Shown here piece by piece: positions 36,191 through 59,117 of a stretch of DNA of 64,000 nt. How positions within the stretch are numbered: the stretch's first letter is position 1; each line of letters opens with the position of its first letter. Location: NCBI GenBank assembly GCA_963803975.1, contig CAWDOY010000003.1:112446-176445 (forward strand). The letters are read 5' to 3'. A program made the position numbers and the translations under genes. Origin of the DNA: an uncultured delta proteobacterium. Its GTDB lineage: Bacteria; Desulfobacterota; WTBG01; CAIYCZ01. The notes under the pieces were generated by a model. The model was not told where the DNA came from. It worked only from the letters and a program-made list of their open reading frames with translations, and did no database searches.

Positions 36191-36194
36191 CACA

Positions 36195-36614: not shown

Positions 36615-36649
36615 ACATAAAGTTAAGATAACGGGCGCTGTTCCCATTA

Positions 36650-36760
36650 CCCATTGGTCACGAGACCCGAGTCACGAGCCACGATTCAGCTGACTGCTGT
36701 AGTCTATTTTGCACGATTCACAGGTCACGGGTCACTTGCTTGCGAGCCCCGTCCCTAACC
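36650..36760. repeat. cluster of GTCACG(A/G)G direct repeats
   Basis: ggtcacgag, agtcacgag, ggtcacggg and ggtcactt occur within ~100 bp upstream of 36780. Confidence 0.4.
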
Positions 36761-36779
36761 CCTAGTTAGAGAGAGCATT

Positions 36780-37340: not shown

Positions 37341-37440
37341 TAAAAGAAGCAGCCATGAGGGTGCGGCAATACTTTTAAGAGAAGAGGATTAAAATAACGT
37401 GCTCTATTATTGGCTTCTTCAAGGTAAAAAAGGGGAATGA

Positions 37441-38039
37441 TTGATGAAAGATAAACTATCCAGATATGAGCCAGAAGATATTGAAAGAAGAATTTATACT
37501 ATTCGCGGTCAAAGAGTGATTATGGATTGCGATCTTGCAACATTATACGTCATTCCGACCTTTAGATTTATGAAGCGGTAAAGCGCAACCAAAAACGTTT
37601 CCCTGATGATTTTATGTTTCAATTAACTGCTCCGGAATATGCAGTTTTGACATCGCAAATTGCGATGTCAAAACCTGGCAGGGGAGGACGAAGAACCCTT
37701 CCGTATGTCTTTACCGAACATGGTGCCATCATGGCGGCGAATGTGCTCAATAGCCCGAAAGCAATAGAGATGAGTGTTTTTGTCGTCCGTGCATTCATTA
37801 AGATGCGTGAAACTCTTGCTAATAATAAAGCACCGGCGTTAGAATTGTCAGAGCTTGAAAAGAAACTTACCGGGCGGCTTAATGTCCATGAAAGAGCCAT
37901 TGTGCATGTTTTGGCCGAGATAAGAAAGTTAATGGCTTCAGCAGAGCCGTCACCTGAACCGACAAAACAAAAAATAGGATTTACGGTAAAGGAGAAGGCG
38001 GCAAGATACCAGATAACAAGAAAGAAAACTGTAAACTAA
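37441..38039 (+). pseudogene. ORF6N-domain gene copy C with a 1-nt frameshift near 37570
   Basis: MKDKLSRYEPEDIERRIYTIRGQRVIMDCDLA then a stop; resumes in FPDDFMFQLTAPEYAVL...AARYQITRKKTVN. Confidence 0.55.
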
Positions 38040-38064
38040 ACATAAAGATAATAAACAGGATTCT

Positions 38065-40770: not shown

Positions 40771-40780
40771 GGAATACGCC

Positions 40781-43196: not shown

Positions 43197-43259
43197 GTTA
43201 AATACGGGCTAACAAGGCACCGTACACACAGGGCAACAGATACTATTCGTGGAGTATAC

Positions 43260-44327
43260 ATGGTGAGTGATAAACTGCTGAAAAAAACAATTTCGGCACA
43301 GGGCGAAGTTTTACTCTATCAGACCGAAGACGGCGCAACTCGAATTGAAGTACGAATGGAGGGTGAAACCGTCTGGATGACGCAGGGAACCATGGCGGAA
43401 CTGTATCAGAACCACGCCGCAAAATATCACGCTTCATTTAAAAGCCATTTATGAGGAGGGCGAACTGGAGGAAGGAGCAACTTGTAAGGAATTCTTACAA
43501 GTTCAAAATGAAGGGGCGCGGAAGGTGACCCGGTCACGAAAATTCTACAGTCTGCCTGCTATTCTTGCAGTCGGCTATCGTGTGCGCTCACACCGGGGAA
43601 CACAGTTCCGGCAATGGGCAACTGAACGGCTTACTGAATATCTCGTCAAGGGCTTTAACCTTGATGACGAGCGATTTAAAAGAGCTGGCGGCGGCGGATA
43701 TTTCGATGAGCTGCTCGCCCGCATCCGCGACATACGCTCATCAGAGAAGGTTTTCTGGCGCAAGGTGCTTGATATTTACGCCACGAGCATTGACTATGAC
43801 TCTCCACGGAAATGTCACAGAAATTCTTTGCCACAGTGCAGAACAAAATGCACTGGGCTGCCCACGGCCACACCGCAGCGGAGGTAATCGCCGCGCGTGT
43901 CGATTCTGAAAAACCCAGCATGGGACTCACCAGCTGGACTGGCGCTCATCCCAACAAAGATGATGTGAGCATTGCGAAGAACTATCTCGACGAAAAGGAA
44001 CTCGATGCGCTCAATCGCATTGTGACACTGTATTTGGAATTTGCAGAACTTCAGGCATTGAACCGTAAACCCATGTATATGGGCGAATGGATCGCCAAGC
44101 TCGACGAATTTCTACGAATAAGTGAGCGCGATATTCTTACTCATGCAGGCAAGGTGAGCCATGAGAACGCTCTACTGAAAGCTGAAACTGAATATCAGAA
44201 GTTCGAGCAGAAGCGTCTGGCTGAACCGACACAGGCGGAGAAGGATTTTGAGGAAGCCGTGAAGAAACTGAGGAAGCTGAAAGCACCCAGCAGGGGAGCA
44301 AAAAAGCCAAAAGGAAAGATGTCATGA
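43260..44327 (+). pseudogene. RhuM-family protein, full length but in three frames
   Basis: VLLYQTEDGATRIEVRMEGETVWMTQ; VGYRVRSHRGTQFRQWATERLTEYLVKGF; FATVQNKMHWAAHGHTAAEVI. Confidence 0.65.
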
Positions 44328-44449
44328 ACCGTTATGTAAATGCAATCGCCGGGCGATTAAGTCTGCGGCAGCCACAGCGTCGCTTCTTGAGAATTAAAGG
44401 GGCAGAGCCCAAAAGACTGCTTCGGTGAAGAATAATATGGAGATAGAAA

Positions 44450-45692
44450 ATGCCTTTAAAATCCTACGAGCACTGCTGTTCTTCCTGTATTGCTCTTGCT
44501 AATCTCGGAAAGATTGAGGGAGTGATACCCATCCTCCATGGACCGCAGGCCTGCGCCTTCGGCAATCAGATCGGCTCCATGTTCTGCCGGCCATCCCGGT
44601 TGCTGACCATTGGCACCACACTTAAAAAGAGTGAAGTTATTTTTGGCGGTGAAGATAAGCTCAAAGAACAGATTGTTAATGTCTATAAACAATACAAGCC
44701 CAAAATTATCGTGATTATTAACACCTGTGTTCCGCAGCTCATAGGCGAAGATTTAAAGGGAGTAATCATCGAGCTGAAGGAAGAACTGCCGGAGCTGAAG
44801 GTGACCTATTGTGAGACCGGATTCAATCAGCCAAAATCTACCCCACTGGGCAATGACGTATCATGGCGGGCGATTATTGACGTGCTGGAGCCCAGGGATA
44901 TGATCAAGGGCTCAGTGGGAATACTGGGGAGGGCAGGGCAGGATGCGGACAGCATGGGCTGTCTTGACGTCTCTGTTGCGGGAAGCGGGTATTACCACGT
45001 TTGCTTTTCCTGCCGGGCACCTTGAAGAAATGGAGAAGATTGTCCAGGCTGAGTATCTGTTCCCCATTCATTTAGTCCCCTATCTGACCAGCAAACGGAT
45101 TAATGAACGGTTTGGCTCAAAGACTGTTTATATTGAACTGCCGGTGGGGATTGCCGGGACTACCAATTTTCTACGCGGAGTTGCCGACCTGACAGGCAGC
45201 ATTAAACTTAAAGAAATTGCAGACCGTGAAGAAAAAAGATCATTGCCGCGATTAGAGAAAATAAGGGAGCAATTCAGACAGAAGCCAACAAAGGTTCTGT
45301 TAGTATCCGGGCCTGCCAATGAAACATCAATTGGGAAAATACTGGCTGAATTCGGAGCAGAAGTGATTATTGTGCCATCCATGCGCAATGCCTTTGCCCG
45401 CCAGGAGCAGGACATTTTGCAAAAGCGCTATGGCTCCCGCATTATCTTCCATGAAAATGACTTTAACAAAGTTTCAGACCTTGTAGGTTTATATAAGCCG
45501 GATGTTGTGTTTGGTGATTTCCAGGCACGCGTTGAGGTTATACGAAACCTTATCCCCTGTCTCATCAACGAGAACTATTTGAATGAATACGGCTATGATT
45601 ATGCCCTGGACTTTGGTGAAAACTTTTTTGAGAACTTGAAGCAGCCATTTTTTACCGAGTGGAAGGATATTATGCGTCAATACGCAGGATAG
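44450..45692 (+). CDS. nitrogenase component 1-type oxidoreductase, NifD/NifE/BchN-like (copy 1), one frameshift near 44960
   Basis: ALANLGKIEGVIPILHGPQACAFG; the second ORF 44943..45692 continues the fold. Confidence 0.7.
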
Positions 45693-45696
45693 AATC

Positions 45697-45775
45697 TGGA
45701 ACTCAGGAACTCATAAATTACAGCCTAATCAAATTAATCTGGAACTCAGGAACTGCATAAATATGATTTTTAAAC
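45697..45775. repeat. two ~26-bp direct repeats in the D-like/B-like intergenic region
   Basis: aatctggaactcaggaactcataaat ... aatctggaactcaggaactgcataaat. Confidence 0.6.
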
Positions 45776-45810
45776 CCTGTGCACGATCGTAGTTTTGTAT
45801 TGGAGATAGC

Positions 45811-47542
45811 ATGTCTGCAACTGACAGAAGAGATTTTATTGCTCCAGAAATAAAGATGAAGGAGATTCATAAGCCATCTTCTTTTGAAGGCGCTTTATGG
45901 GCCGCGCAGGGGATAACAGATGCCCGGGTGATTTATCATGCACCTCCCGGCTGCTATCTTATGCAGCACATGAACTCCATCTGCAATGAATGGCATCCTG
46001 AGATGTACAGCACGCTCATATCATACGCTGAAGTTATGCAGGGCACCGGGAAAAAGCTGGAGGAGGTGCTGGAAAAGGTTGTCGCTGAAAAGCCGCAGGC
46101 AATTATTATAATAACCTCACCGGTGATTGAGATTACCGGCGATGACGTTCAGGGTGCAGTCGCGGCTGCAGGATTCGAGAAGACGGTAATAATAAGACCA
46201 ACCCTGGGCGGCACACTCGCTGATGGAAAGGAAAAGGCATTTATCGCTCTGACCGGACTGATGAAGACAGACGAAGAGAAGCGGAAAAAGTCCGTCAATT
46301 TAATAGGGCCGACCTATAATACGTTCAACTGGCGGGCGGATGTATTTGAACTTAAAAGAATGCTCTCTGCCATCGGTATCTGCGTCAACGCTGTTTTAAC
46401 AGCTGACTGCACGGTTGATGAAATTATACATGCACCCCGGGCTGAACTAAATATATGCATGTATCCCTATGATTGCGGGATAGAATTTGCCAAGAAAATG
46501 CAGGAGCAGTTCAGCATACCGTATATTGCAAGCCATATTCCCCTTGGCTTCCGAGAATCAGCTGCATGGCTTGATGAAATTGCCCGGTTCTTTCTGATTG
46601 ATGCAAAGCAGTATATTGCACAGGAAATAAAAAGTGCCCGGGACTTTGTCACAACGCTTTTGGTAACCAACACCTTCTTTGAAGCAACGGCTGCCCTCTC
46701 AACTGACAACTGTGATACCTACAGCGTCGGGATAAGCAGTTTTCTGAAAAGAGAACTCGGCATGGATGTTTGCATGGCGTCGGTAGCAACTGATGAGGCA
46801 TTGGAAAAAGTGTCCCAGGTTTGCTCTACGGTACTATTAAATCCAAGCATTGATGAGAAAAAGTCGGTAATGCTGGAGAAATCCCCGACCATTATTCTCG
46901 GGAATTACTATGACCTCAAGCTTGCAACTGACCTGGGATTCAAGAACTTCCTGTTTGCGGATATCCCGCTTATCGGATACATCTTTTCAGAAACTACTCC
47001 ATTCATGGGCTTCATGGGTGCTAAGCATCTGGTGCAGGCCATGGGCAATGAGATTTATACCAAGATATTTATTGAGACCAAGGGGGAAATGGAAGGCGCC
47101 ATATCAGCAGGGGAGGTGCCGTGGGAACTCGATGCGGAGCGGGCGCTGGGAAGGATTGCTGAGATGCTCCCTCATTTTATACGTTCAATCGCGCTGAAGA
47201 AAATTCATCAAGTGGCAGATGAGACAGCCGTGCAAAAAAAATCTTCGGTCACGCTGGGGATCCTGCAGGAGGTCGCCACAAAATATACCCCGACGAGGTT
47301 TAAGTCAAAATATGCCACCATCTTTACGGATATAAAAGATACCCCGCTTGTTCCAGATGGCGCTGAGCAGACCGTGTTTCAGATGGAGTGGGATCAGGGC
47401 TGCTAAAGAGATGCTTGAGATGGTGCCCGATGAGTTCGTGGCAAAGGCGGTGAGGGAAACAGAAGGCTATGCCCGCGAGAACAATTATGGTCAAATAACT
47501 ACAGCGGTTGTCGAGGAATACCGGAAGAAGCTCGGCTTTTGA
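45811..47542 (+). CDS. nitrogenase component 1-type oxidoreductase, NifK/NifN/BchB-like (copy 1) with two C-terminal PCP_red-like domains; frameshift near 47395
   Basis: VIYHAPPGCY; PWELDAERALGRIAEMLPHFIRSIALKK; the last domain WSGIRAAKEMLEMVPDEFVAKAVRETEGYARENNYGQITTAVV is out of frame (ORF 47348..47542). Confidence 0.7.
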
Positions 47543-47555
47543 TTAATTGAAATAA

Positions 47556-48429
47556 CTATTCTTCGTCAAACCGCTTATCCCTCAGACTGTCTACAAACTG
47601 CGGGGTAATGACAGAAATTCCCTTTTCTTTTGCTGCATCAACAACCACTTCTATCATTCCATTCAAAAAGATAGCGGGCACTTTCAAAAGCCGTGCGCAG
47701 GCATCTTCCTGCCATGTGATGTTCGGGTCAAATCGGGAACAGGCATACTTAACGGTTGCCATGGTGTTGCCTTTTCCCCGCGGGATCGGGATAGCATAGG
47801 GCGGTGAGTGCCTGGCAAACCAGAACCGTACATTATCCCGGTATCCATAATCAACGGGCAGGGCAGGGAACCCCTGTCCCTTGAATAAACAATCCCGCCA
47901 TTTTTTCTGCATGATGATTTTGTCAATGCGCAGCAGAAAGTGGTATTCCATGCGCTCTTTATTATGCTGCAGCGTAAAACTCTCATCCCAGCTGCACAAA
48001 AAGACCTGAACCGCCTCTTTCACAATATCAGGATGCGTCGCGCAAACCTGGCGGTTGCGCGGCTTGCCATACGGGGTTGCCGGCAGCAGGGTAAAGATGC
48101 TTCTTTTCATTTTCTCCTCAGTGGTCTCACCGGGATAACCAAGCATAACGCAGTTCTTCATATATTTCTTCGTGTCAGGAATATAATTAAGGGAGCAAAC
48201 TTTCGTGCGTATGATGTTAGCGGCGGTATTGCTGCTGCCGCGTGCGATAAGCATCATGGCGTGCTGCTGGTCTCCCGCGATAATATGGGGAAAGCAGAGT
48301 GAATACGGTCCCAGGTTGATCATCCCGGACTCTGAATAAGGTGCTCACCAGTATCACCGGCATCGGAATAAAACTCGACGTCTGATAAAAGTTATCTACA
48401 ATTCGTATTTCGGTAAAATCCTGAGACAT
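47556..48429 (-). CDS. hypothetical protein with C-terminal PCP_red-like domain; one frameshift
   Basis: TWQEDACARLLKVPAIFLNGMIEVVVDAAKEKGISVIT; ORFs 47556..48323 and 48217..48429 overlap. Confidence 0.4.
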
Positions 48430-48656
48430 GCATGAACCTCCATTGGAAAGAGTAAAATGTTATAATTAACCGCGTTAAACAGATAATATAAGAGCCCTTT
48501 AATTTCAAGAAAAATGAAATTAAAGGGCTGATAAATATATCTTGACTCGAAAGTTGCTTGTGATAATAGTTTGGAAACTAAATATAAGGTATCAAATTAA
48601 ACAGCATGTGGCAACATAATTATTACAGCTGATAATCGGCTGACCATTTACCGGAT

Positions 48657-49157
48657 ATGAAGACAGGAAAGAAAATAATGAAAAATAAAAATGAAAACAT
48701 TAATTTAAAGGAAATTGAGGAGTTCGGAGATCATCTGCGCAATTGGAGAAATTTTTTCACTGAGTTTTTTAATAACGTAATAAAAGACAGCGGCAAAATA
48801 TCAGGCTTTGATTTCAGTATGTCACAGTTTAAGACCATGGGGGCCTTTCGGGAAGATACGGTCTATACCATGGGCGAGTTAAGTAAAAATGCTTCTGTTA
48901 CCATGCCGACCATGACTGAAATGATTGATAATCTGGAGCGGGAAGGAATTGCCGAGCGGATAAGGGATTCTCAGGATCGGAGGGTAGTAAAGGTACGTTT
49001 AACTGCAAAAGGAAAAAAGCTGCGCAAGAAATTCATGGATAAACGAAGGAATGAACTTAAAAACATACTCAGCAATCTGAGTAAAGAAGACCGGGGTGAG
49101 CTTATGAATGCGCTTGCCAAAGCGTACAGCGTACTGAAGAAAAACAGCACGGTATAA
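48657..49157 (+). CDS. MarR-family transcriptional regulator
   Basis: Winged HTH TMGELSKNASVTMPTMTEMIDNLEREGIAERIRDSQDRRVVKVRLTAKG. Confidence 0.7.
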   Translation: MKTGKKIMKNKNENINLKEIEEFGDHLRNWRNFFTEFFNNVIKDSGKISGFDFSMSQFKTMGAFREDTVYTMGELSKNASVTMPTMTEMIDNLEREGIAERIRDSQDRRVVKVRLTAKGKKLRKKFMDKRRNELKNILSNLSKEDRGELMNALAKAYSVLKKNSTV

Positions 49158-49192
49158 TACGGCCTGTAGAATAAACAGATAAGGAGAGGATT

Positions 49193-50438
49193 ATGCTTAA
49201 AAGCTATGAGCACTGCTGTTCTTCAATGCAGGCTTTGGCAACACTGGGGAAGGTGGAGGGAATCATTCCTTTGCTGCATGGACCGCAGCCATGCGCCTAT
49301 CAGATTCAGATAGGAACCATGACCTGCCGTCCATCACGCCTTCTTACCGCTGGTACTTTGATTAAGAAATCAGAGGTGGTCTTCGGCGGCGAAGAAAATT
49401 TAAAAAATCAAATAATCAATATGTACCGCCAGTATAAGCCAAAAATAATCGTAATCATCAATACGTGTCTTCCCCAGCTCATCGGCGAGGATATAAAAGG
49501 GGTAATCAGTGAAATAGAACTGGAACTGCCTGATTTAAAAGTGACCTATATTGACAGTGGATTCAATTTCCCTAAATGTATGCCTCTGGGAAACGATGTG
49601 GCGTGGGTATCGATCGTGAGACTGCTTGAAATAAAAGAGAAGGTAAAGGGATCAATTGGTCTGGTTGGAAGGTCAGGGCAGGATGCCGGAGCTTTTACAT
49701 CATTTGACACGTTTTTAAAGCGGGCAGGGATTACGGTATTCCCGTTTCCCGCTCCGCATCTGAATGAAATGGAAAAAATTGCATGTGCAGAAATTATATT
49801 CCCAGTCCATGTAGTACCGTTCCTGACCTGCAAAGAGATGAGCGAACGCTTCGGGTCAAGGGTAGAATATATTGAAATTCCTGCAGGTGTGCAGGGCACT
49901 ACAAATTTCCTGCGGGGGGTTGCTGATATCCTGAAAAACCAGAAGCTGCATGATCTGGTGGATACAGCAGGAGCAGGAAATGCGGCCCCGCATAGAAGCT
50001 ATAAAAGAGCGCTTTGCCAAAAACCCGATTAAAGTGATGTTTGCATTCGGGCCGGCAAGTGAGTTCGGGCTGAGCAAGATTATGGCTGACTTCGGAGCTG
50101 AGGTCATAATGATTCCTTCAATGAAAAATAAGTTCGCACAGCAGGAGAAAGAGCTGCAGAAGAAGCGATACAACGTGACTATTATTGAGGAAGATTTTGA
50201 TACCCTGGAGGATCTCTATGATCAGTACCGGCCGGATGCAGTGTTTTGTGAAACGCAGGGCCGGGTAGAACTTACCTCGCGGCTTATTCCAACATTTTGC
50301 AACATGACTTATTTAACTGCTTACGGATATGACTTTGCTCTGGATATGGGGGAAAAGTTCCATGAGAGTATGAAGCTCGATGTATTATCATCCTGGAGAG
50401 ATGTGGTTCAGAGATACGGAGGCGATCTCAATGCGTAG
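49193..50438 (+). CDS. nitrogenase component 1-type oxidoreductase, NifD/BchN-like (copy 2), one frameshift near 49990
   Basis: ALATLGKVEGIIPLLHGPQPCAY; paralog of 44450..45692. Confidence 0.7.
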
Positions 50439-52194
50439 TACTGAAGGCAAGGCAATGAAGCAGCTGGAACTGGCAGGCGCCCGCGAGCTGAAGATGAAGG
50501 AGATTCATAAGCCTTCAGCGTTTGAGGGGGCTTTGTGGACGGCTCTCGGTATAAAAGATGCGCGGGTTATTTACCACGCACCTCCCGGCTGCTACATCAG
50601 TCAGCATATGGATGCGCTGATGCATGAGTATCCGTTTGAATTATATACGACGTCACTTTCATATGCCAATGTTATGCAGGGTGCAGAGAACCAGCTCGAA
50701 GCAGTGTTGAGAAAAACCCTGGCACGAAAACCAAAACCGAAACTGGTAATCATTGTTACTTCTCCCAGTGTTGAAATAACCGGCGATGATGTGGAGGGGG
50801 TTGTAGAAAAAGTCGGAGATAAAAACTGTGTCGTAATAAGGCCCCCGATTGGCGGAAGCCTGCACGAGGGAAGGGAAAAGGCGTTAATAAGTCTGATAGA
50901 CATAATGGTTCCAGCTGTTGAAAAGATTGCTAAAACAGTTAATTTTATTGGTCCGACTTTTGATACCTTTAACTGGAGAGCTGACGCATTTGAGCTAAAA
51001 AGAATGCTTTCACGTATCGGCATCAAGGTTAATGCGGTACTGACCGGTGGATCACGAGTGAATGAAATTATTAACGCACCACGTGCTTTATTAAACCTCT
51101 GCTTGTATCCCTATGACTGCGGTATTGAGACGGCGCAGATCATGGAGAAGAAATTCGGCATTCCGTATCTTGCCGGCCATGTACCAATTGGTTTTAAAGA
51201 ATCTGCTGTCTGGCTTGAAGAAATTGCTGGCTTTTTCAAGGTGGACGCACGGGAATATCTTAAAGAAGAGACCGAAATGATATTTGAACTAATCCAGTCC
51301 TTTATGGTGCTGCCTATTACGTTTGAATGCTCTGCTGCTCTGTCGCTGGATAATAACGATACCTATGCAGTGGGCATAAGTCAATTTCTGAAAAAGGAAT
51401 TGGGAATGGAGCTCTCCATGGTGGCTGTAGGCAGTGATGCTGCAGGGGAAAAAGTAAAAGAAGTCTGCAGTAATGTTCTGGTAGAACCTACCATTGATGA
51501 AAAGAAGGAGCAGTTTATCGAAAAGGGCCCGATGATGATTATGGGCAACTTTTATGATTTAAAGATAGCCAAAGAACTTGGTTTTAATAACTTCCTCTTC
51601 GCTGATATTCCAACGCTGGGATACATTGCCACAGAGGCAAGCCCCTACATGGGTTTCCAGGGGGCAAGGAATTTGATTCAGCAGACGGGCAATCAGATTT
51701 ATATCAATTTTCTCATTGAGACCAAGGGCGGCATGGAAGAAGCCATCTCTTTGGGAGAAATTCCCTGGGACCTTGATGCACGGGAAGCGTTTGTAAAAGT
51801 CGCAGCCGTAATTCCGCATTTTATTAAAGCTACCGCCATGAGAAAGCTGCAGAAAAAAGCAGAAGAGCTTGCAGTTAAAAATGGCACGGGAATTACTATG
51901 GATATAATTAGAACGGTAACAGAACAGTACACGCCAACCAGGTTTAAATCAAAATTTTTATCTGCATTGCAGGGCGGTCAAGACGGAGAGCAACAGGGGG
52001 AATTTTCTGCAGAACTAACATTTACCATGGAATGGGATGCACCAGCCAGGGAATTGATGGAAAAGATTCCGCAGGAAGTTAAAACAATGGCAGTTGCAGG
52101 TACTGAGGAATTTGCAAGAGAGAAAGGCTACAAAAAAATAACAGTCGGCGTAGTGAATGAGTTCAAAGAAGAGGCCGGCATGGGGAAAAATTAA
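50380..52194 (+). CDS. nitrogenase component 1-type oxidoreductase, NifK/BchB-like (copy 2) with two C-terminal PCP_red-like domains, intact
   Basis: VIYHAPPGCYISQHM; IPWDLDAREAFVKVAAVIPHFIKATAMRKL; MEWDAPARELMEKIPQEVKTMAVAGTEEFAREKGYKKITVGVV. Confidence 0.75.
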   Translation: MYYHPGEMWFRDTEAISMRSTEGKAMKQLELAGARELKMKEIHKPSAFEGALWTALGIKDARVIYHAPPGCYISQHMDALMHEYPFELYTTSLSYANVMQGAENQLEAVLRKTLARKPKPKLVIIVTSPSVEITGDDVEGVVEKVGDKNCVVIRPPIGGSLHEGREKALISLIDIMVPAVEKIAKTVNFIGPTFDTFNWRADAFELKRMLSRIGIKVNAVLTGGSRVNEIINAPRALLNLCLYPYDCGIETAQIMEKKFGIPYLAGHVPIGFKESAVWLEEIAGFFKVDAREYLKEETEMIFELIQSFMVLPITFECSAALSLDNNDTYAVGISQFLKKELGMELSMVAVGSDAAGEKVKEVCSNVLVEPTIDEKKEQFIEKGPMMIMGNFYDLKIAKELGFNNFLFADIPTLGYIATEASPYMGFQGARNLIQQTGNQIYINFLIETKGGMEEAISLGEIPWDLDAREAFVKVAAVIPHFIKATAMRKLQKKAEELAVKNGTGITMDIIRTVTEQYTPTRFKSKFLSALQGGQDGEQQGEFSAELTFTMEWDAPARELMEKIPQEVKTMAVAGTEEFAREKGYKKITVGVVNEFKEEAGMGKN

Positions 52195-52299
52195 ACGAAA
52201 TGTTCTTAACAGAAAGGAGGCAAACATTTACGCAATAATAGCAGAAAATGAAAGCCAGAGAAAATTTAAAACTATGAAAAAATATGGAGGAGAATTGTT

Positions 52300-53239
52300 A
52301 TGAAAAAAACATTGTCAGTACTGTTTGCTTTTATATTTATGGTTAGTTCCGCCTCTATACTATTTGCTTCAGAAGCAAAAAAGGCAGCAACTGCAGGCGG
52401 CAAAGAAAAGATAGGTATTCTTATGGTTGCCCATGGAGAGCCGGAAACGTTTGATGCTCCGGTATGGGAAAAAGGCTTAAAACTGATGTTCAAAGAGTTT
52501 AAGGACTCCGGCATGGAAGTACCTACTGATGAAGCATTTCCGACAATCCTTGAAGAGATTAAGCATAAATATGAGGTTATGGGAGGTAAATCACGCCATG
52601 CCGAAATGTCACGATTGCAGTGCAAGCTTGTCTGCACAGAAGATGCCCGGCTATGATTTCCGTCTTGGCTTTATGGAGTTTATGGGGCCTGAATTTTCCG
52701 AAGTGGCAGAAGGGATGATTAAGGATGGAATTAAAAAGATAGTCTTTCTGCACATGCTGCAGACGGATTCCACACACACCGGAGAAATAAACAACAAGAT
52801 AAAAGAGATGAAGCTTGAGGAGCGGGGGATAAAATACGCAATCAGCAAGCCACTCTTCTACAGACCTGAACCTACGCAGCTCGTTATCGATAAAATTTTG
52901 AAAGCTACCGGGAATACGCCGTATGAGCAGGTCGGGGTTGTGCTTGCATCACACGGAGAACCTGAGGCCTGGGTTAAAGCGAATCTGTTAAATACAAAAT
53001 GCAAAGAGCAGGAGATTGCATTCTGTAACTGCGTAAAAAAGGGCTTAATTGAGAGAGGCTTTGTTTGGGAAAATATTACCCAGGGATTTAATGAATTCCA
53101 AAAACCGGAAATGCCCGAGGCGGTAGAGCTTATGGCTGAACGGAAAGCAAAGAAAGTGGTTGTCATCCCCAGCTTTGGCACTACTGAAGGAATGCATATC
53201 ACCTACGATATACCGACCAAAGCACGGACAGCTTGGTAG
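52300..53239 (+). CDS. secreted two-domain class II chelatase-fold protein (CbiX/CbiK/SirB-like); one frameshift
   Basis: Signal peptide; GILMVAHGEPE and VGVVLASHGEPE half-domains; VVVIPSFGTTEGMHITYDIP. Confidence 0.5.
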
Positions 53240-53339
53240 ATCCTTCAATAGAACTGGTTTATACCGGAGGATGGAACGATAACCCGCTTCTTATAAAAGC
53301 ATGGGTTGAGCTTGCAAAAGAGGCTTTGAAAAGGTTGTA

Positions 53340-53540
53340 GTGACTAACTATTTTAAAAGGATACTAAGCATGGCAAAAATAGATACAACTAAGTGTGTAG
53401 GATGCGGCGGGTGCATTGACCTCTGTCCAGTGATTGCGATTGCTATGATACAGGATGTGGTGACTGTAGATCAGGATATCTGTACAAAATGCGGCATCTG
53501 CATAAAAGTCTGTCCCGTGCGTGCACCTTACGAAGATTAG
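53340..53540 (+). CDS. 2[4Fe-4S] ferredoxin
   Basis: CVGCGGCIDLCP and CTKCGICIKVCP. Confidence 0.8.
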   Translation: MTNYFKRILSMAKIDTTKCVGCGGCIDLCPVIAIAMIQDVVTVDQDICTKCGICIKVCPVRAPYED

Positions 53541-53577
53541 CACGAATAATTAGACATTTTATAAAAGAGGATGCTAT

Positions 53578-54909
53578 ATGGCAAAAAAATATGATCTCGT
53601 GATAGTGGGCGCGGGCCCTGCAGGATTAATGGCTGGAAGAATCGCTGCTGAGAACGGCTTGAAGGTTGTCATTTTAGAGAGGAAAACAGATATCTGCAAG
53701 GTGAGAAGATTTGACGGCGGCGTGTTTGCTATCAATGAATACACCTTTGGCCAGCTCGCTTTGTATAACGAACGGGATAAGAGGGTCACTTTTCCTGTTG
53801 GCGGATTTTCCACTCGCTATGACGGCCCGTACACCAATGTTTTTGGCTTCCACCTTTATTCGCCGGGAGGAAAAAGGCTGCGGTTTGGTGACTGGACGAA
53901 ACTGAAGGACGATCCAATAAAAAACCGGGTAGCCATAGCGCTCAATAAAGAAATACTGTTAAAAAGCATGCTTGATGATTGTCTGGCAACGAGTGTTGAG
54001 GTGTTACCCAATGTAAATGTCACTGCCGTGAAAACCGGCGATAACCGGGTTACGGTAACCGGCAACGGCGAGGAGTATGAAGCACCGTTTCTGATAGCGG
54101 CAGATGGTTCTAATTCGAGGATTGCACGGCTTGCCGGTTTCAACAAAGAACGGGAGTTTTTTGCTACCTCGCGTCACATCGGTTATGAGGTTGAGGGAAT
54201 GGACTATGATGAATTAAACGGGTTTATCATAGCTCTCACCAAACATGGCTTCTACAGCATACTCCCTTATTTTGAAAAAGGGGTAAATCACATCGGGCAT
54301 CTTACCCATGACCCGTCAGTAGACCTGCATGCAACCATGCAATGGTTCATCAAGGAATCGCCGGTCTTTTCATCCTGGTTTAAAAAGGCCAAGGTGCGCG
54401 AAACAGGACTTACCGGATGTGTTGTGAATGTCTATAAGGCACTGGAAGACCCGTTTAAAGATAATGTGATACTGGTGTCTGATGCTGCCTGGATACAGGA
54501 GGTGAGCATTCCCTCGGCAATGTGTTTTGGCTGGAAGGCGGCAAATGCTGTTACGCTGGCTTTGCATGATGGAAAACCAAACCGTGAAGGAGTGCAAAGC
54601 TATCTTGATTGGTATGGCATTAATTTTTACCAGCCGCACGGCAACAGAAAAATGGTTGCAATTGAAATGCAGAAGTTTCTTGCAACCGAAGACCTTGATT
54701 ATCTGGCAGAGCTGCCGGGGAAGGTCTTTCGCCAGACCATGGATTTCCACTATCTGTTCCATATGCTCGGCGAGATATATGGCGGAGACGGGATGATAAA
54801 AATATCAGAAGAGCGTCCGGATATCATGGAAAAGCTTATTGATGCGCGGGGAAGTATGGCAGAAGCATCTGAGGAAAGACGCAAGATGGGTTTTCCCGGG
54901 AAAAAATAA
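53578..54909 (+). CDS. FAD-dependent oxidoreductase, geranylgeranyl reductase family
   Basis: YDLVIVGAGPAGLMAGRIAAENGLKVVILERK; ~440 aa; cognate ferredoxin directly upstream. Confidence 0.7.
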   Translation: MAKKYDLVIVGAGPAGLMAGRIAAENGLKVVILERKTDICKVRRFDGGVFAINEYTFGQLALYNERDKRVTFPVGGFSTRYDGPYTNVFGFHLYSPGGKRLRFGDWTKLKDDPIKNRVAIALNKEILLKSMLDDCLATSVEVLPNVNVTAVKTGDNRVTVTGNGEEYEAPFLIAADGSNSRIARLAGFNKEREFFATSRHIGYEVEGMDYDELNGFIIALTKHGFYSILPYFEKGVNHIGHLTHDPSVDLHATMQWFIKESPVFSSWFKKAKVRETGLTGCVVNVYKALEDPFKDNVILVSDAAWIQEVSIPSAMCFGWKAANAVTLALHDGKPNREGVQSYLDWYGINFYQPHGNRKMVAIEMQKFLATEDLDYLAELPGKVFRQTMDFHYLFHMLGEIYGGDGMIKISEERPDIMEKLIDARGSMAEASEERRKMGFPGKK

Positions 54910-54927
54910 TAAACAAAGGAGAAGAAC

Positions 54928-55743
54928 ATGAATAAAATCAGATTACCAATAATACCAGTTATAGTTGCAGCACTGATGTGCATGTGGGCATACGGCACCG
55001 TAGCCTACGCAGCCGCAGATATAAAAGCTTTGAAAACTAAAATAGACGATACCTGGGACAGTGGTGATTTTAAAGCATTTGAAAATCTGGAAAAGGAATT
55101 AACTTCACAGGTTAGCGATAAGGATGCTGATGGCTGTCTGGTGCTGGCTAAATTTTACTATTGGTATTCGATGCTCTATGCGGAAAAAGCAAATACTGAT
55201 AAAAAGCACTGGCTTGATGAGGAAAAGTATGCCGGCGATAAGGCACTGTGGGCTAAAGGCGGGGAGATGATTGATAAGGCCCTTGACTTAATTAAAAAGG
55301 CTGATGAAATGAGTCCGGGAAATCCCCAAATACTTCCTTATTATGCTGTAATCAAATATCGCAAGATACGCCATTGCGGCAACATGATATGTGCCATGCT
55401 GCATATGAAGAGCCTTTTGGATGTAACCCGGCTTACCATTGAGAAAGGCAAAAATGACGCAAGCGCCAATCTGGCTTATGGTATCTACAAGCTCGGCAGA
55501 TCACAGAAAATGGGAGGCAATCCCCGTGAAGCCATCAGCTATCTGCAGGTGGTTATAAAACTTGATCCCAACAGGGCCGAAGGATATTTCTGGTACGGTA
55601 AATTTTTCATGAGCCCGAATATAAAATTTCAACCTAAGCTTGCCCGTCCGAATTTTGAAAAGGCGGTTGCTCTTAATCCAAAAAACTGGCTGTATAAGGA
55701 AACGCTTGAACAATTTAACAAAGACTATCCTCCTGAAAAATAA
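54928..55743 (+). CDS. secreted hypothetical protein (helical/TPR-like)
   Basis: Signal peptide; 271 aa. Confidence 0.4.
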   Translation: MNKIRLPIIPVIVAALMCMWAYGTVAYAAADIKALKTKIDDTWDSGDFKAFENLEKELTSQVSDKDADGCLVLAKFYYWYSMLYAEKANTDKKHWLDEEKYAGDKALWAKGGEMIDKALDLIKKADEMSPGNPQILPYYAVIKYRKIRHCGNMICAMLHMKSLLDVTRLTIEKGKNDASANLAYGIYKLGRSQKMGGNPREAISYLQVVIKLDPNRAEGYFWYGKFFMSPNIKFQPKLARPNFEKAVALNPKNWLYKETLEQFNKDYPPEK

Positions 55744-55832
55744 AACAACAATAATTCTGCTATGGTTCGGGACCATCTTTAGTTTAGGCGGTTCCGAACC
55801 TTAATAAATTTAAATACACCAAGAGGTATAGC

Positions 55833-57272
55833 ATGAAAATTCTTAAAATAGTCCTACTATGTATAGTTGTTCTTGTTATCGCAGGGTATGGATTATACAA
55901 GTATAAAAACCTACCACAAAAACCCGATTATTATGAGTTCTATAAGAATCAGGATACCGTGCCTGAAGGGAAGATAGGGGTTCTGGTGGCCGGCTTGATC
56001 ATGCCGGAAAAGATCAGCCCGGTGTTTTTCAATAATGTAGCGAAAAAAATCTTTAAGACGATCGTTCCCTGGCCGGCCCGCAATTTTGTTACAGCAGATA
56101 AAGGGGTCGCTCTGCTTGATCCGGTTACGTTCCACTCTCATGAATCTTTTACGCCGACCAGTCTTATTGACCCTGATGGTAGCGACCGTGACATAGACGG
56201 AATGCCCTATATCGAGAAGTATAAGCAGGGACTGGTGAAATGGGTTCCCCCATCATCCATGCTCTATCTTGATCACGGCTATTTTCTCTACACCGGACGC
56301 AAGGGTGGCCAGCCAACTATTTGCGGGAAAATAATAAATAAATCCCGCATCTGGTATCACAATAAAGGCAGCCTCCAGCATGATCTTCCCCACTGGAAGC
56401 AGACCTTTAAGGTAATTGATGGTGCACATGAAAAGCTGAAGGAAAAATATGGAAATATTGAGTTCCGGGCTGAATGTAATATGTTTTATTATGAGCTGCG
56501 CGAAAAGCTCTATGAACTGCTCGATGCAGGATGCACTACGCTCGTGCTCAGCTCGCCTCTTCCCATGTACTCGCACTTTGAAGAATTTAACTCAGGTTTT
56601 CGCCACTGCTTTGAGTTTATTGAGGAGTGGGAAAAAGAACACCCCGGTAAGAAAATTAAGGTCATCATGGCGCCGCCCATGGGGCTCTATCAGCCCTATC
56701 GAAAGGCGTTTTTAGAAATGCTGAAAGACCGATTGGATACTTTGCCTAAAGATGCCAGCATTACGGTAGTGGTAAGTGTTCACGGCATGCCCTGGGATCT
56801 TTTCACATGGGAAGCATGGATACAGCTTGCTCCACCCTGGCGCGACAAGCTGTTTGAAGAAATCAAGGAGATGGTGGATTCATATAAATTTAAAAAGACT
56901 AATGTGGTAGCAGCACAGGATGAGTTTGCAGACCCGATCTGGGACCCAAAACAAAAATATCTTTCAACCAACCGCGCCTACTGGAATGCAATCAAGGAAG
57001 GATATGATTATGCGATTAATATCCCGATAGAATTTTATGGCGAAAACTCAGATACGATGTTTCACCATGCACTGAAAAACTATCACGGGTTTGATCAGTA
57101 TGATTTGTATAAGCCGATTGATTATCCTGACTGGTCGGTTCCTTTAACCAGAGAATTTGTACAAGGAAAAACCCGCATAATATATAATGGAGTGCCGGTA
57201 GGCAAATATCAAAAGTACGTAATTGAAGCATTTTACCAATCAATTGACTCCATTTTATCTAAGAAAAAATAA
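55833..57272 (+). CDS. membrane-anchored ferrochelatase-like (class II chelatase fold) protein
   Basis: N-terminal TM helix; KIGVLVAGLIMPEK and ITVVVSVHGMPWD resemble HemH signatures. Confidence 0.35.
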   Translation: MKILKIVLLCIVVLVIAGYGLYKYKNLPQKPDYYEFYKNQDTVPEGKIGVLVAGLIMPEKISPVFFNNVAKKIFKTIVPWPARNFVTADKGVALLDPVTFHSHESFTPTSLIDPDGSDRDIDGMPYIEKYKQGLVKWVPPSSMLYLDHGYFLYTGRKGGQPTICGKIINKSRIWYHNKGSLQHDLPHWKQTFKVIDGAHEKLKEKYGNIEFRAECNMFYYELREKLYELLDAGCTTLVLSSPLPMYSHFEEFNSGFRHCFEFIEEWEKEHPGKKIKVIMAPPMGLYQPYRKAFLEMLKDRLDTLPKDASITVVVSVHGMPWDLFTWEAWIQLAPPWRDKLFEEIKEMVDSYKFKKTNVVAAQDEFADPIWDPKQKYLSTNRAYWNAIKEGYDYAINIPIEFYGENSDTMFHHALKNYHGFDQYDLYKPIDYPDWSVPLTREFVQGKTRIIYNGVPVGKYQKYVIEAFYQSIDSILSKKK

Positions 57273-57407
57273 TTTGTTATTTGCCTGACTCGCAAGCAGG
57301 TTCAGACCTTGCCGCATAAGGATGGGTCTGAACCTGCTTGGAAAATTCAATCTGCAACACATAATATATCAACCAGCACTAAATGGGTCTTAACGGTGGA
57401 GAAATTA

Positions 57408-57995
57408 ATGGACATTTTAGCAATCTGTGGAAGTCCCAGAAAACATAAAACTACTCACAGCGTGCTGGAGGCGGTACTGTCTGGAGCAGGCAGGCCATAT
57501 GAAATACTGTGGCCTGCTTTTATGAAGATTGGCCACTGCATAAGCTGTCAAAAGTGTAAGTACAAAACACCTGGCGAATGCTGGCAGGACGATGACATGA
57601 AAGTGGCCATCGAAAAAATGTTTGCAGCCAGAGCGCTTATAATAGCATCTCCCACTTATTTTGGTAATGTACCAGGCCCCTTAAAGAACTTTATCGATAG
57701 AACCATCCCTACCTGCTATACCGGCAAGGGAGACACTTGGATGGGAGCAGAGAACCACGGGAAACGGCCTTTTAAGGGGCAACTCGGCATGATTGTTGTC
57801 GTGTCGGGTGGTGCTGACCAGGAGAAAACAGCAGCTAATCTGCGCCTGGTATTTGATTATTATGAATATGCTGTGATTGGAGAATTTGCCGAGAGCATGG
57901 GTGGGATTATTGTCAGCAAACAAGAATACCCGGATATCTATACCAGGCTTTTTGCTCTTGGCAAAATACTTGATGAAGCCCTGAAAACAAGGTAA
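57408..57995 (+). CDS. iron-sulfur flavoprotein (Isf)/NADPH-dependent FMN reductase family
   Basis: MDILAICGSPRK plus compact CISCQKCKYKTPGEC motif. Confidence 0.65.
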   Translation: MDILAICGSPRKHKTTHSVLEAVLSGAGRPYEILWPAFMKIGHCISCQKCKYKTPGECWQDDDMKVAIEKMFAARALIIASPTYFGNVPGPLKNFIDRTIPTCYTGKGDTWMGAENHGKRPFKGQLGMIVVVSGGADQEKTAANLRLVFDYYEYAVIGEFAESMGGIIVSKQEYPDIYTRLFALGKILDEALKTR

Positions 57996-58004
57996 TATAC
58001 GAAC

Positions 58005-59117
58005 ATGACAATAGAAGGGATAAATTCCAAAACAGGGATAATCATGATTGGCCATGGAGAGCCGGAAGTCTTTGAAGAAGAACTGTGGGCTGAAGCGCTG
58101 CATGAAATGTTTGAGGAGTTAAAGAGAACCGGTATCGAAGCTCCTTCTGATGAAGCCATTCCCCTGATGCTGCCCATAATAGAGGGAAAATATGCAGCCA
58201 TAGGGGGCAGATCAAGACATAATGAGATCATTGGCAAGCAAAGCGAACTAATAGCCCGGACGTTGCATGAACACGTAGTCAGTTATGGATTCAATGAATT
58301 CACCAGCCCGCATTTTACGGCCGTTACCGAGCAGATGATACGTGAAGGAATAACCAGGATGGTGTTTGTTCCCATGCTGATGACAGATTCCTCGCATACG
58401 CAGGAGATAAAAAATAAAATTGAATGCATGAATCTGCAAGAACAGGGTGTTACCTGGGTTATGAGTAAGCCACTCTTTTATAGACCGGAACCAATACAAC
58501 TGGTAATAAATAAAATTATGCGAGCTGCGGGAAACATTCCGCCAGATAAAACAGGCATACTACTCGTTTCCCATGGAGAACCGGATCAGTGGGCTTTATC
58601 GTCCACTATACATACCAAATGCAATGAGCAGGAGAAAGCGTTTGCTTTGAGTGTAAAAAAGGGGCTTATTGAGAGAGGCTTCCCAGGGGAGAATATCGTG
58701 CGGGCATTTAATGAATTCACCCATCCTGAAATAGCAGAAGCGGCTGAAGGACTGGCGCATAAAAAAGTCAAAAAGATTATTGCCGCAGCCACCTTTGGCA
58801 ATACTGACTGTATCCATGTAAACTATGACATACCGGCAAAACTAATAGAATCTATTGATAACGCAGCCGTAGAGATTGTTTGTCTTGATGGGTGGAATGA
58901 AGATCCTCTGCTGATTACCGCATATTGCGAACTGATCAAGGAATCGCTGCTACTGCTATCTGAAAACCAGATTGAAGGTTGCTACCTGTCGAAGGGGGGT
59001 AGCAGCGTCTGCAGTCAGAATGCAAACAATCATTACAGAGCAATAATAAAGCGTCTGGCTGCTGCTCGCATAGGGGCACATGTCTCTTTATCCCTGACCA
59101 TAGAGCCGTACGACTAA
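58005..59117 (+). CDS. two-domain class II chelatase-fold protein (paralog of 52300..53239) with extra C-terminal domain
   Basis: GIIMIGHGEPE and GILLVSHGEPD; alignable over ~300 aa to the 52300 protein. Confidence 0.5.
   Translation: MTIEGINSKTGIIMIGHGEPEVFEEELWAEALHEMFEELKRTGIEAPSDEAIPLMLPIIEGKYAAIGGRSRHNEIIGKQSELIARTLHEHVVSYGFNEFTSPHFTAVTEQMIREGITRMVFVPMLMTDSSHTQEIKNKIECMNLQEQGVTWVMSKPLFYRPEPIQLVINKIMRAAGNIPPDKTGILLVSHGEPDQWALSSTIHTKCNEQEKAFALSVKKGLIERGFPGENIVRAFNEFTHPEIAEAAEGLAHKKVKKIIAAATFGNTDCIHVNYDIPAKLIESIDNAAVEIVCLDGWNEDPLLITAYCELIKESLLLLSENQIEGCYLSKGGSSVCSQNANNHYRAIIKRLAAARIGAHVSLSLTIEPYD

Follow-up and report, generated by a model that had tools for sequence, protein, structure and literature searches.

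Introduction

Nitrogenase-like enzymes perform some of the hardest reductions in biology and, to our knowledge, each characterised system of this kind does so with one homodimeric Fe protein. The described systems that bear most closely on the present work are DPOR (BchLNB/ChlLNB), COR (BchXYZ), CfbCD and MarHDK/IsrHDK. In this paper we describe a gene cluster that encodes two further pairs of nitrogenase-like subunits (here ‘D’ and ‘B’) together with class II chelatase-fold proteins, located at positions 44450–59117 of a 64-kb stretch of DNA from an uncultured delta proteobacterium (GenBank assembly GCA_963803975.1, contig CAWDOY010000003.1, positions 112,446–176,445 of the forward strand; hereafter ‘the window’). 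A review of nitrogen-fixation-like (NFL) enzymes published in 2026 distinguishes Groups IV-A to IV-F, V and VI, notes that CfbD works without a K/B-type partner, and names the uncharacterised clades as the main challenge for the field (PMC13474568).

Two earlier studies come nearer still to the organisms and genes in question. Group VI enzymes, from Elusimicrobia, Myxococcales and Gracilibacteria, have been proposed to reduce tetrapyrroles (Meheust et al. 2020). Secondly, the Desulfobacterota class ‘Anaeropigmentia’, known from metagenome-assembled genomes (MAGs) of ~47% GC from lakes and sediments, has been reported to carry chlLNB-, bchXYZ-, bchE- and chlP-like genes, with no chlG or reaction centre; the genes were assigned by KEGG and hidden Markov model (HMM) homology to the synthesis of bacteriochlorophyll (BChl) a, and pigmentation was inferred from them (Murphy et al. 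2021, 10.1101/2021.03.22.436540).

Two paralogous D/B pairs in a conserved gene cluster

Each pair in the window consists of a D subunit of the NifD/BchN type and a B subunit of the NifK/BchB type: D1 (44450–45692) with B1 (45811–47539), and D2 (49193–50438) with B2 (50431–52194), all four genes lying on the plus strand. D1, B1 and D2 were read after repair of single frameshifts (see below), giving proteins of 414, 577 and 414 aa, and the frame-joined proteins match full Pfam models; B2 is intact, with 587 aa, or 604 aa if counted from an upstream ATG. PF00148 is present in all four (191 bits over the full length of D1, 220 bits for B1, 185 for D2 and 227 for B2), and both B proteins end in a PCP_red domain (PF08369; 39.5 bits for B1 and 45 bits for B2, against a cutoff of 32.5), so that the two paralogous pairs, and their sizes, are as given in a preliminary description of the window made by reading the sequence without database searches. 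D1 and D2 are 57% identical, B1 and B2 54%. D1 is 83/74% identical to its counterpart on the related contig L001, and the five Cys that are invariant in the family are all present in it.

Between 44450 and 59117 every substantial open reading frame (ORF) except one lies on the plus strand. The neighbourhood is conserved in relatives, the same gene order being found on the independent contigs L001, L004, L007, L038, L044 and L045; the cluster is therefore no chance arrangement.

The D/B pairs stand apart from characterised clades

Judged by their sequences, the D/B pairs are an isolated, conserved and functionally uncharacterised branch of the nitrogenase-like superfamily. They reach none of the NCBIfam equivalog cutoffs for Nif, Vnf, Anf, NifEN, BchNB, BchYZ or CfbD. 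For the B subunits, the BchB model (TIGR01278) gives 155.6 bits with B2 and 136.3 bits with B1 against a cutoff of 490, BchZ (TIGR02014) 114–131 bits against 529, and NifE 78–99 bits against 505; for the D fragments, NifE gives 54–63 bits, CfbD (TIGR03282) 46–56 bits against 268 (26–56 bits over all proteins scored on this model), and BchN (TIGR01279) 20–48 bits against 420, with BchY (TIGR02015) at 18 bits against 425. Taken across the nitrogenase and NifEN models (NifD/K/E/N), scores of 23–99 bits compare with cutoffs of 327–874.

By BLAST, the best match of B1 and B2 among annotated plasmids and references is BchZ (23–27% identity, 97–118 bits, with 23–24% and 108–118 bits for real BchZ proteins taken from annotated plasmids); they are 22–23% identical to the BchB of S. 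guttiformis (69–85 bits) and 24% identical to NifE, and D matches BchN at 31 bits or not at all. In a search of the PDB, B2 reaches 71 bits with ChlB and 69 with MarK (9d9u_C), and D2 50–58 bits with NifE, VnfD and MarD, the MarD match (9d9u_A) being the 50-bit one. The B family is similarly isolated in a search of 1.84 billion representatives: one full-length relative scores 672 bits and two divergent ones 498 and 403 bits, beyond which nothing exceeds 160 bits or 32% identity except short fragments of the same family, and the nearest outgroups also lie below every equivalog cutoff. An AlphaFold (AF2) model of B2, of moderate confidence (predicted local distance difference test, pLDDT, of 68), resembles β-type subunits of all kinds, BchB/ChlB giving the best TM-scores (0.77–0.80), and is too weak to rank BchB firmly against AnfK/NifK.

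In view of the equivalog cutoffs, the PDB scores and the BLAST comparisons with real Bch and Nif proteins, we reject orthology with DPOR, COR, CfbCD, NifEN or Mar. Nitrogen fixation is rejected on the tiny scores, the missing Cys ligand of the iron–molybdenum cofactor (FeMo-co), the lack of the two P-cluster Cys in B, and the absence of nifB/E/N genes. The preliminary description had found no textbook system to match; with D/B equivalog scores all far below cutoff, and the proteins inside no characterised clade, that judgement holds.

Family distribution and probable Fe-protein partners

Homologs of B2 number more than 147; they are of ~580 aa, all carry PF00148 and PF08369, and are named only ‘hypothetical’ or, by JGI auto-annotation, BchB or BchZ. 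Scans of species-representative genomes and metagenome contigs yielded 106 loci; ORFs were called and clustered on 109 loci, the window included, giving 89 distinct B proteins on 109 contigs. Nearly all the named hosts are lake, sediment or spring MAGs labelled as uncultured Thermodesulfobacteriota or ‘delta proteobacterium’, bacteria that resemble sulfate reducers; a further one is a Spirochaetota single-cell genome. The constant element of the loci is the D/B pair, its two genes always occurring together, and the canonical operon reads MarR-H1-H2-D-B: H1 and H2 are NifH-like, and the MarR gene, usually first in the operon, adjoins 45 of the 89 distinct D/B pairs.

NifH-like genes occur in 54 loci, nearly always as two in tandem (examples are L029:2567–4268, L039 and L009:6949–8674), and the order H1-H2 is fixed in 41 of these 54. 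A characteristic motif reads DILGDVVC in H1 (279 aa) and DVLGDVVC in H2 (~281–300 aa); both keep the P-loop and the two cluster cysteines, Cys97 and Cys132. As orthologs from different genomes are more alike (73–85% identity) than H1 is to H2 (51–61%), the two are old paralogs. Both stay below the equivalog cutoffs, scoring 296–310 bits on NifH, 291–304 bits on CfbC (cutoff 402) and 173–221 bits on BchL/BchX.

The B proteins fall into three classes, as assigned from a neighbour-joining (NJ) tree, built from B proteins only, together with best hits. Class B has 43 members, with H1-H2 adjacent in 32; class C, which includes B2, has 17 members and H1-H2 adjacent in 9; and class A, where the tree places B1, has 29 members, only 3 of them with H1-H2 adjacent. 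The window thus holds one pair of class A and one of class C, with no H gene.

This absence had been recorded in the preliminary description, and no NifH-type gene is present anywhere in the 64-kb window: the one match of Azotobacter vinelandii (Av) NifH by tblastn was to the P-loop region of an ATPase of the CbiA/MinD type (3964–4740). It most likely does not extend to the system as such, two NifH paralogs being the family norm. In all seven of the MAGs that have an H-less locus an H1-H2 locus is found on another contig; in one of these MAGs, the closest relative, L007 (94% identity to B2) is paired in this way with L029 (MarR-H1-H2-D-B), and L039 and L041, with B proteins 86–88% identical to B2, themselves read MarR-H1-H2-D-B, followed in L039 by FAD protein, chelatase and TPR protein. 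We consider the window's system almost certainly NifH-dependent and, since close relatives and all MAGs with an H-less locus carry H1-H2, the lineage most likely keeps these genes elsewhere in its genome, with a third D/B pair of class B.

One sister locus is organised differently. L034 (6936–15032) encodes a B protein of 502 aa, 39% identical to B2 and devoid of PCP_red, with a single NifH-like gene (263 aa) and three flanking radical SAM/SPASM genes, in the order rSAM-H-D-B-rSAM. A neighbouring ‘TP_methylase’ was considered as a tetrapyrrole methylase and rejected: it is RsmI, the 16S rRNA methyltransferase, and we have dropped it as evidence.

Predicted metal centre

Three cysteines of D, at positions 9, 34 and 92 (C9, C34, C92), fall in the columns of those NifE and VnfD cluster ligands that correspond to NifD C62, C88 and C154, and are kept in 24–25 of 25 D sequences. 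In B, Cys54 of the motif HxPPGCY is invariant and occupies the column of ChlB Asp36, the fourth ligand of the DPOR cluster (HAPPGC vs HAPLGD). Because D supplies three cluster Cys and B a Cys in place of this Asp, the simplest reading suggests an all-Cys (3+1), inter-subunit [4Fe-4S] cluster at the D/B interface; a four-Cys pattern has been reported for COR (Group V). B has no Cys at the P-cluster positions corresponding to NifK C70 and C153 (‘FEGALW’ and ‘TSPSVEITGDD’), and D none at the column of the FeMo-co ligand Cys275. Further invariant cysteines are C8 (part of an HCC doublet) and C45 (‘MxCRP’) in D, and C224 and C346 in B; by eye, a Cys in the B segment ‘LNLCLYPYDCG’ lies two residues from the NifD Cys275 column.

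Chelatase-fold proteins and other accessory genes

Two class II chelatase-fold proteins, 49% identical to each other, are encoded downstream of B2 on the plus strand. Chelatase-1 (52300–53340; 345 aa repaired) starts with a Sec-type signal peptide, MKKTLSVLFAFIFMVSSASILFA, and matches CbiX at 62.9 bits and Ferrochelatase at 53.4 bits over the whole model; chelatase-2 (58005–59117), a cytoplasmic form, scores 61 and 57.6 bits. Both exceed the Pfam cutoffs for these families and stay under those for the named enzymes (hemH, 31–43 bits vs 124.6; CfbA, 54–61 bits vs 120). The AlphaFold model of chelatase-2 (pLDDT 81.8) superposes on class II enzymes, Foldseek matching it to CpfC/HemH (E ~1e-13, TM 0.76–0.79) and next to SirB and the periplasmic CbiK of Desulfovibrio (E ~1e-9). 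The final stretch of its gene (58970–59117) encodes ~45 aa past the end of all orthologs, with pLDDT below 50, and is probably read-through, due either to an error in the sequence or to loss of the stop codon.

The family to which both belong (32 clusters, ~320 aa) travels with the D/B cluster, a class II chelatase adjoining 16 of the D/B pairs. Each half of the protein has a GHGEP(E/D) and a (T/S)D..H motif, H17, H72, H131, H190 and H271 are invariant, and forms with signal peptides recur (e.g. P0320–P0322). A third chelatase-fold protein, membrane-anchored, had been put forward alongside these two in the preliminary description; this 479-aa protein with an N-terminal anchor (55833–57272, plus strand) we can call chelatase-like only as a borderline case. 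It reaches 26.3 bits on PF00762 (E=4.7e-6) against a cutoff of 27, and 26 bits on TIGR00109, and has the His motif ‘VSVHGMPW’; comparison with the chelatase profile by hhalign gave no significant match, and no counterpart was found in the related loci.

Between the chelatase genes, again on the plus strand, lie several that could supply or transfer electrons. A 2x[4Fe-4S] ferredoxin (53340–53540, probable start 53370) has matches to Fer4 families, two CxxCxxCxxxCP motifs and 82% identity to the ferredoxin of L001. The adjoining FAD-dependent oxidoreductase (53578–54909) was expected to be of the geranylgeranyl-reductase (GGR) family; it does belong to that GGR/FixC superfamily, as a distant member scoring 75 bits on TIGR02032 (GG-red-SF) against a cutoff of 158.8, and is not BchP/ChlP, an identity that we reject on this score and on the failure of BLAST to match it to BchP (S. 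guttiformis), its match to FixC being weak. An FAD protein of this type adjoins 9 of the 17 class-C pairs. A secreted TPR protein (54928–55743), with TPR Pfam matches and a signal-peptide-like N-terminus, comes next, such a protein following the chelatase in 7 of the 17 class-C loci. The Isf-type iron–sulfur flavoprotein (57309–57995, probable start 57408) matches FMN_red (PF03358) at 85 bits and bears the motif CISCQKCKYKTPGEC, its Cys pattern reading C-x2-C-x2-C-x7-C; FMN_red proteins recur in 6 related loci. Together with the MarR-family regulator (48657–49157, plus strand; PF01047), the ferredoxin and the Isf protein were correctly named at the outset.

The single minus-strand gene, p290 (47556–48429), encodes a flavin-reductase-like split-barrel protein, 80–84% identical to a 290-aa protein of L001, with a PCP_red-like C-terminus. 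It is the separate PCP_red protein of the preliminary description: the gene is there and some homologs do match PF08369, its own match being weak (E=0.005–0.007). Its family comprises 586 clusters, in which some members carry PF01613 (flavin reductase) and/or PF08369, and it adjoins class-A or class-C pairs in 10 loci. In the divergent promoter region between p290 and MarR lies a 22-nt inverted repeat (48486–48536, no strand assigned; AGCCCTTTAATTTCA-N7-TGAAATTAAAGGGCT core, arms 86% complementary), a possible MarR operator as judged from its sequence and position. Scans for Rfam families and tRNAs returned nothing in the window, and promoter and terminator scans did no better than on shuffled sequence.

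Elsewhere, p290 homologs (L036:2925–8864 and L037:7075–10910) stand beside 650-aa, BilR/BaiCD-type enzymes of the old yellow enzyme (OYE)/FadH group, which score highest on the NCBIfam models BaiCD and ‘bilirubin reductase, long form’ without reaching either cutoff; p290 homologs also have Fe_bilin_red, DUF1302/DUF1329, an RND pump and α/β-hydrolases nearby. Around the D/B pairs themselves, Fe_bilin_red adjoins 9 and a B12 radical SAM protein 3, the latter with BchE as its best NCBIfam model (208 bits vs a cutoff of 481), and the outer-membrane families DUF1302 and DUF1329 adjoin 11 and 8 class-B pairs, respectively. Also recurrent are DUF169, PNPOx-like, flavin-reductase-like, NmrA-like and short-chain dehydrogenase/reductase (SDR) proteins, a His-rich P-type ATPase and other transporters. 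The SDR neighbours were considered as BchC and rejected, being generic FabG/glucose-dehydrogenase-like proteins. In two class-A loci (L012:189–3783 and L013:12345–15950) the stretch between D/B and the Fe_bilin_red/B12-radical-SAM genes encodes a P-type heavy-metal ATPase and two His-rich membrane proteins, one of them small and the other of 320 aa. NifB-like radical SAM and sulfur-assimilation genes are absent from the recurrent neighbours of the related loci, and bchM/G/F/C, puf and puh genes from the loci altogether.

This inventory also bears on whether we are looking at genuine, if fragmentary, genes of BChl a synthesis (chlLNB, bchXYZ, bchE, chlP), as was read in ‘Anaeropigmentia’. Such homologs are reported there in 17 MAGs without reaction centre and chlG (10.1101/2021.03.22.436540), the GC content (~47%) and the habitats fit, and the automatic labels of the B proteins point the same way. 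Equivalog scores 3- to 5-fold under cutoff, 22–24% identity to real BchB/BchZ, an FAD protein without a BLAST match to BchP, chelatases of class II rather than Mg-chelatase, a Cys in B at the DPOR Asp36 column, and loci free of bchM/G/F/C, puf and puh are all at odds with such genes, and we regard the idea as extremely improbable.

Frameshifts and flanking DNA

In the sequence of the window D1, B1, D2 and p290 are each broken by one frameshift and chelatase-1 by two; in total, comparison with the orthologous cluster of L001 reveals a shift of frame in ~9 genes of the 44–62 kb region. DNA alignment to L007 and L038 (92–96% nucleotide identity) shows that the breaks that can be compared are all of one extra base, never a deletion, with none in a homopolymer: D1 near 44966 (judged against L007/L038), B1 near 47397–47401, p290 at 48337, D2 at 49964 and, in genes downstream, single-base insertions at 59845, 59948 and 61109. 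For chelatase-1 (breaks near 52634 and 53231) the sole available reference is a paralog of 66% identity, relative to which one break is an insertion and the other a deletion. Apart from these breaks the reading frames are preserved, with 80–97% protein identity to relatives. As the indels run in one direction through otherwise conserved frames, the frameshifts look more like sequence (read or assembly) error than gene decay, and are probably of that origin; saying this, a one-directional pattern of insertions is an odd kind of error.

Were the frameshifts in D1, B1, D2, chelatase-1 and p290 real, the cluster would be a decaying relic in this organism and its pathway non-functional. In favour of this, ~9 frameshifts lie between 44 and 62 kb while the long housekeeping genes of the window (DnaE, EF-G, GuaA and GuaB) are intact, and an insertion sequence (IS) element and a degraded restriction-modification island have been inserted just upstream. 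The +1 character of every core-gene break for which a close ortholog exists, their position outside homopolymers and the degree of protein identity kept around them argue the other way, as does the fact that further genes of the window (the restriction-modification genes, an AsmA-like gene and probably panE) look frameshifted too, a pattern more typical of read or assembly error; we hold a relic to be very unlikely.

The ~11-kb island (33300–44400) separates D1 from an AsmA/DUF748-like gene (31950–33216), the two being adjacent in L001. It contains an IS transposase (DUF772/DDE; 34659–36149), a DUF2939 gene (36780–37340), a heavily frameshifted type I restriction-modification system of 58–60% GC (HsdM, 38065–39109; HsdR, 40781–43053) and a split RhuM gene (43525–44327). 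Homocitrate and CooC-type ATPases can serve the assembly of metalloclusters, and the window does encode an HMGL-like protein with a homocitrate-synthase-type second domain (23333–24574, minus strand) and, at 3964–4740 on the plus strand, the P-loop ATPase mentioned above, of the CbiA/MinD/CooC type; both are probably genes of ordinary metabolism.

Proposed function

Building on the gene content, family structure, ligand pattern and chelatase fold established above, we tentatively propose—with a confidence that falls somewhat short of even—that the window encodes classes A and C of the three paralogous D/B components of an uncharacterised nitrogenase-like reductase, in its full form MarR-H1-H2-D-B, which reduces a porphyrin-type macrocycle. 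In such a scheme the NifH-type ATPases H1 and H2, most likely encoded elsewhere with the class-B pair, would be reduced by the ferredoxin or the Isf protein and, on ATP hydrolysis and docking, would deliver single electrons to a [4Fe-4S] cluster at the D/B interface, held by three Cys of D and one of B. Electron pairs and protons would then reduce C=C bonds of the macrocycle in a pocket beneath the PCP_red tail of B, a domain that acts as a pocket lid in the structures of DPOR. Like DPOR and COR, the three D/B classes might each reduce a different bond or work one after another along a series of intermediates. An exported and a cytoplasmic class II chelatase-fold protein would bind the macrocycle and see to the insertion or removal of its metal, and the ferredoxin and FAD protein could reduce a side chain or supply electrons.

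A tetrapyrrole substrate, whether of porphyrin, chlorin or bilin type, is indicated by the convergence of the PCP_red tail, the nearness of B to BchB/BchZ, the chelatases, and the Fe_bilin_red and BchE-like neighbours. The preliminary description had arrived at the same class of substrate from the PCP_red domains and chelatase folds; the Fe_bilin_red genes, the BchE-like B12 radical SAM protein and the split-barrel flavin-reductase/PNPOx-like neighbours strengthen its case for this putative substrate.

Several observations weigh against our proposal. The tetrapyrrole-type neighbours each occur in a minority of loci, the 10 kb around the pairs showed no genes of the hem, cob or cysG type, and a lipid or an isoprenoid would be another fitting substrate for a system with DUF1302/DUF1329, a GGR-like flavoprotein and SDRs. 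H1 and H2 are nearer to NifH/CfbC (296–310 bits) than to BchL/BchX (173–221 bits), the role of PCP_red as a lid in B is carried over by analogy from DPOR, and, with two extra invariant Cys (C8 and C45) in D, the cluster may be something other than a plain [4Fe-4S]. The direction of the pathway is argued, weakly, from the type of regulator and from protein export, the available sequence of the window has frameshifts in four of its five core genes, and the family as a whole is known from sequence and predicted structure.

Some of these points would sit comfortably with a substrate of another kind, the chemistry being C–S cleavage (Mar/Isr-like), dearomatisation or the reduction of an isoprenoid or lipid, with the chelatase-fold proteins handling a metal or cofactor. 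H is closest to NifH/CfbC, B2 scores as well on MarK (69 bits) as on ChlB (71 bits) in the PDB search, D has its extra invariant cysteines, and GGR-like, SDR, NmrA and DUF1302/DUF1329 proteins are among the neighbours. MarR regulators, moreover, are typical of aromatic catabolism, BadR being an example. Set against this, the PCP_red tail, class II chelatases and Fe_bilin_red, BchE-like and BilR-like neighbours concur on a tetrapyrrole, sulfur-assimilation and NifB-like radical SAM genes are missing from the recurrent neighbours, and B has no P-cluster Cys at NifK C70/C153; we judge a non-tetrapyrrole substrate to be distinctly unlikely.

If the substrate is a tetrapyrrole, the reductase could serve to process a compound from outside or to build one within the cell. 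In view of regulation by MarR, of the export of chelatase and TPR proteins, and of the DUF1302/DUF1329 (outer-membrane) and bilin-reductase-like genes of sister loci, we lean towards inducible processing (salvage or breakdown) of an external metallotetrapyrrole over the synthesis of a housekeeping cofactor. The same chemistry could also run the other way and build, de novo, a new and highly reduced metallotetrapyrrole as cofactor or pigment, the ring being reduced three times in succession and the metal added by the class II chelatase, in the manner of F430 or bacteriochlorophyll. Three D/B classes mirror DPOR plus COR; the BchE-like radical SAM protein, GGR-like flavoprotein and chelatases echo the bch and cfb toolkits; the class-A loci contain a His-rich P-type ATPase and membrane metal-transport genes; conservation across the lineage fits a housekeeping cofactor; and the Group VI precedent has been interpreted as cofactor synthesis (PMC13474568). 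The MarR gene, the exported chelatase and TPR proteins, and the DUF1302/DUF1329, Fe_bilin_red and BilR-like neighbours better fit a compound from outside, and no genes for uroporphyrinogen, precorrin or siroheme were seen in the flanks. De novo synthesis is a doubtful but serious possibility, and nearly as likely as the processing of an external tetrapyrrole.

Carried to its conclusion, the processing of external compounds would mean that uncultured Thermodesulfobacteriota of anoxic lakes and sediments run an O2-independent pathway that dismantles or remodels environmental metallotetrapyrroles (derivatives of chlorophyll, haem or geoporphyrins), a speculation that we put forward as unlikely in its full extent. 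Here the exported chelatase-fold and TPR proteins and the DUF1302/DUF1329 outer-membrane proteins would capture the compound, class II chelatase-fold enzymes working in reverse would remove its metal, and the three D/B paralogs with H1/H2, which would then be the first heterodimeric Fe protein, would de-aromatise the ring stepwise at the expense of ATP; ring opening and bilin reduction would fall to the BchE-like radical SAM, Fe_bilin_red-like and BilR-like enzymes. If true, this would be the tetrapyrrole counterpart of ATP-dependent benzoyl-CoA reduction.

Depending on the direction, a tetrapyrrole substrate would reveal a reduced metallo-cofactor of a new kind or the first anaerobic pathway by which tetrapyrroles are turned over reductively in sediments. 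Two Fe-protein paralogs in one operon raise the question of a heterodimer as against a division of labour; three catalytic paralogs per genome apparently share H1 and H2. The work also corrects a likely mis-annotation: pipelines label these genes BchB/BchZ, and in non-phototrophs they have been taken for ‘bacteriochlorophyll synthesis’.

Comparison with known systems

Literature searches turned up no description of the H1-H2-D-B family as such; the related publications were the general review of NFL enzymes, the study of Group VI and the preprint on ‘Anaeropigmentia’, and papers on pre-PcyA make no mention of nitrogenase-like neighbours. Going by its description, the preprint is probably an earlier sighting of the same gene families. 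Its assignment to bch differs from ours in that no equivalog cutoff is passed here and that class II chelatases, MarR and two H genes are not a bch context.

Among the characterised enzymes, COR (Group V) resembles the present family in being a three-part, ATP-dependent reductase, in the inter-subunit cluster of three Cys plus one Cys that we predict here, and in BchZ being the best BLAST match of B1 and B2 among annotated plasmids and references. It differs in the scores (BchZ, 114–131 vs 529; BchY, 18 vs 425), in the PCP_red tail on B and the two H paralogs found here as against one BchX, and in context, our loci lacking photosynthesis genes and belonging to uncultured anaerobes. DPOR (Group V) shares other features: BchB is the best HMM match of B, PCP_red aligns with the C-terminus of ChlB, D has the three BchN-type Cys, and the B2 model has its best TM-score to BchB/ChlB. 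Unlike DPOR, the family has Cys for Asp36, H proteins nearer to NifH/CfbC than to BchL, and scores far under the cutoffs of 490 and 420. The combination of a DPOR-type substrate-lid domain with what appears to be COR-type, all-Cys ligation is thus an unusual mix.

CfbCD (Group IV-B), whose substrate is a metallated isobacteriochlorin, also sets a nitrogenase-like reductase beside a small class II chelatase, and the H proteins and chelatases described here score 291–304 bits on CfbC and 54–61 bits on CfbA. The differences lie in the D/B heteromers of our family, in CfbD, CfbC and CfbA scores below cutoff, and in bacterial hosts without mcr context. For MarHDK/IsrHDK (Group IV-C/F), compared through MarD and MarK, the scores are only 50 and 69 bits, respectively, and neither NifB-like nor sulfur genes are among the recurrent neighbours of our loci.

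Group VI (Meheust et al. 2020), in concept the nearest of the described groups, is likewise a divergent HDK set without FeMo-co ligands, in a tetrapyrrole-type and B12-radical-SAM context. By its description it is set apart by the two H genes, the PCP_red domain on B, the MarR gene and the class II chelatases of our loci, where radical SAM neighbours are rare, and the published Group VI genome list contains none of the MAGs found here; L034, the nearest sister locus found, with its B protein 39% identical to B2, does resemble the described Group VI context.

Finally, the chelatase-fold proteins share with the class II chelatases CpfC/HemH, SirB, CbiK and CfbA/CbiX a two-domain fold and, with CbiK(P), the existence of exported variants. 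At 12–20% identity, with motifs in both halves and five invariant His, they form a tiny family of their own: a private set of class II chelatases, symmetric and with five histidines each, that is tied to the D/B cluster and has exported members.

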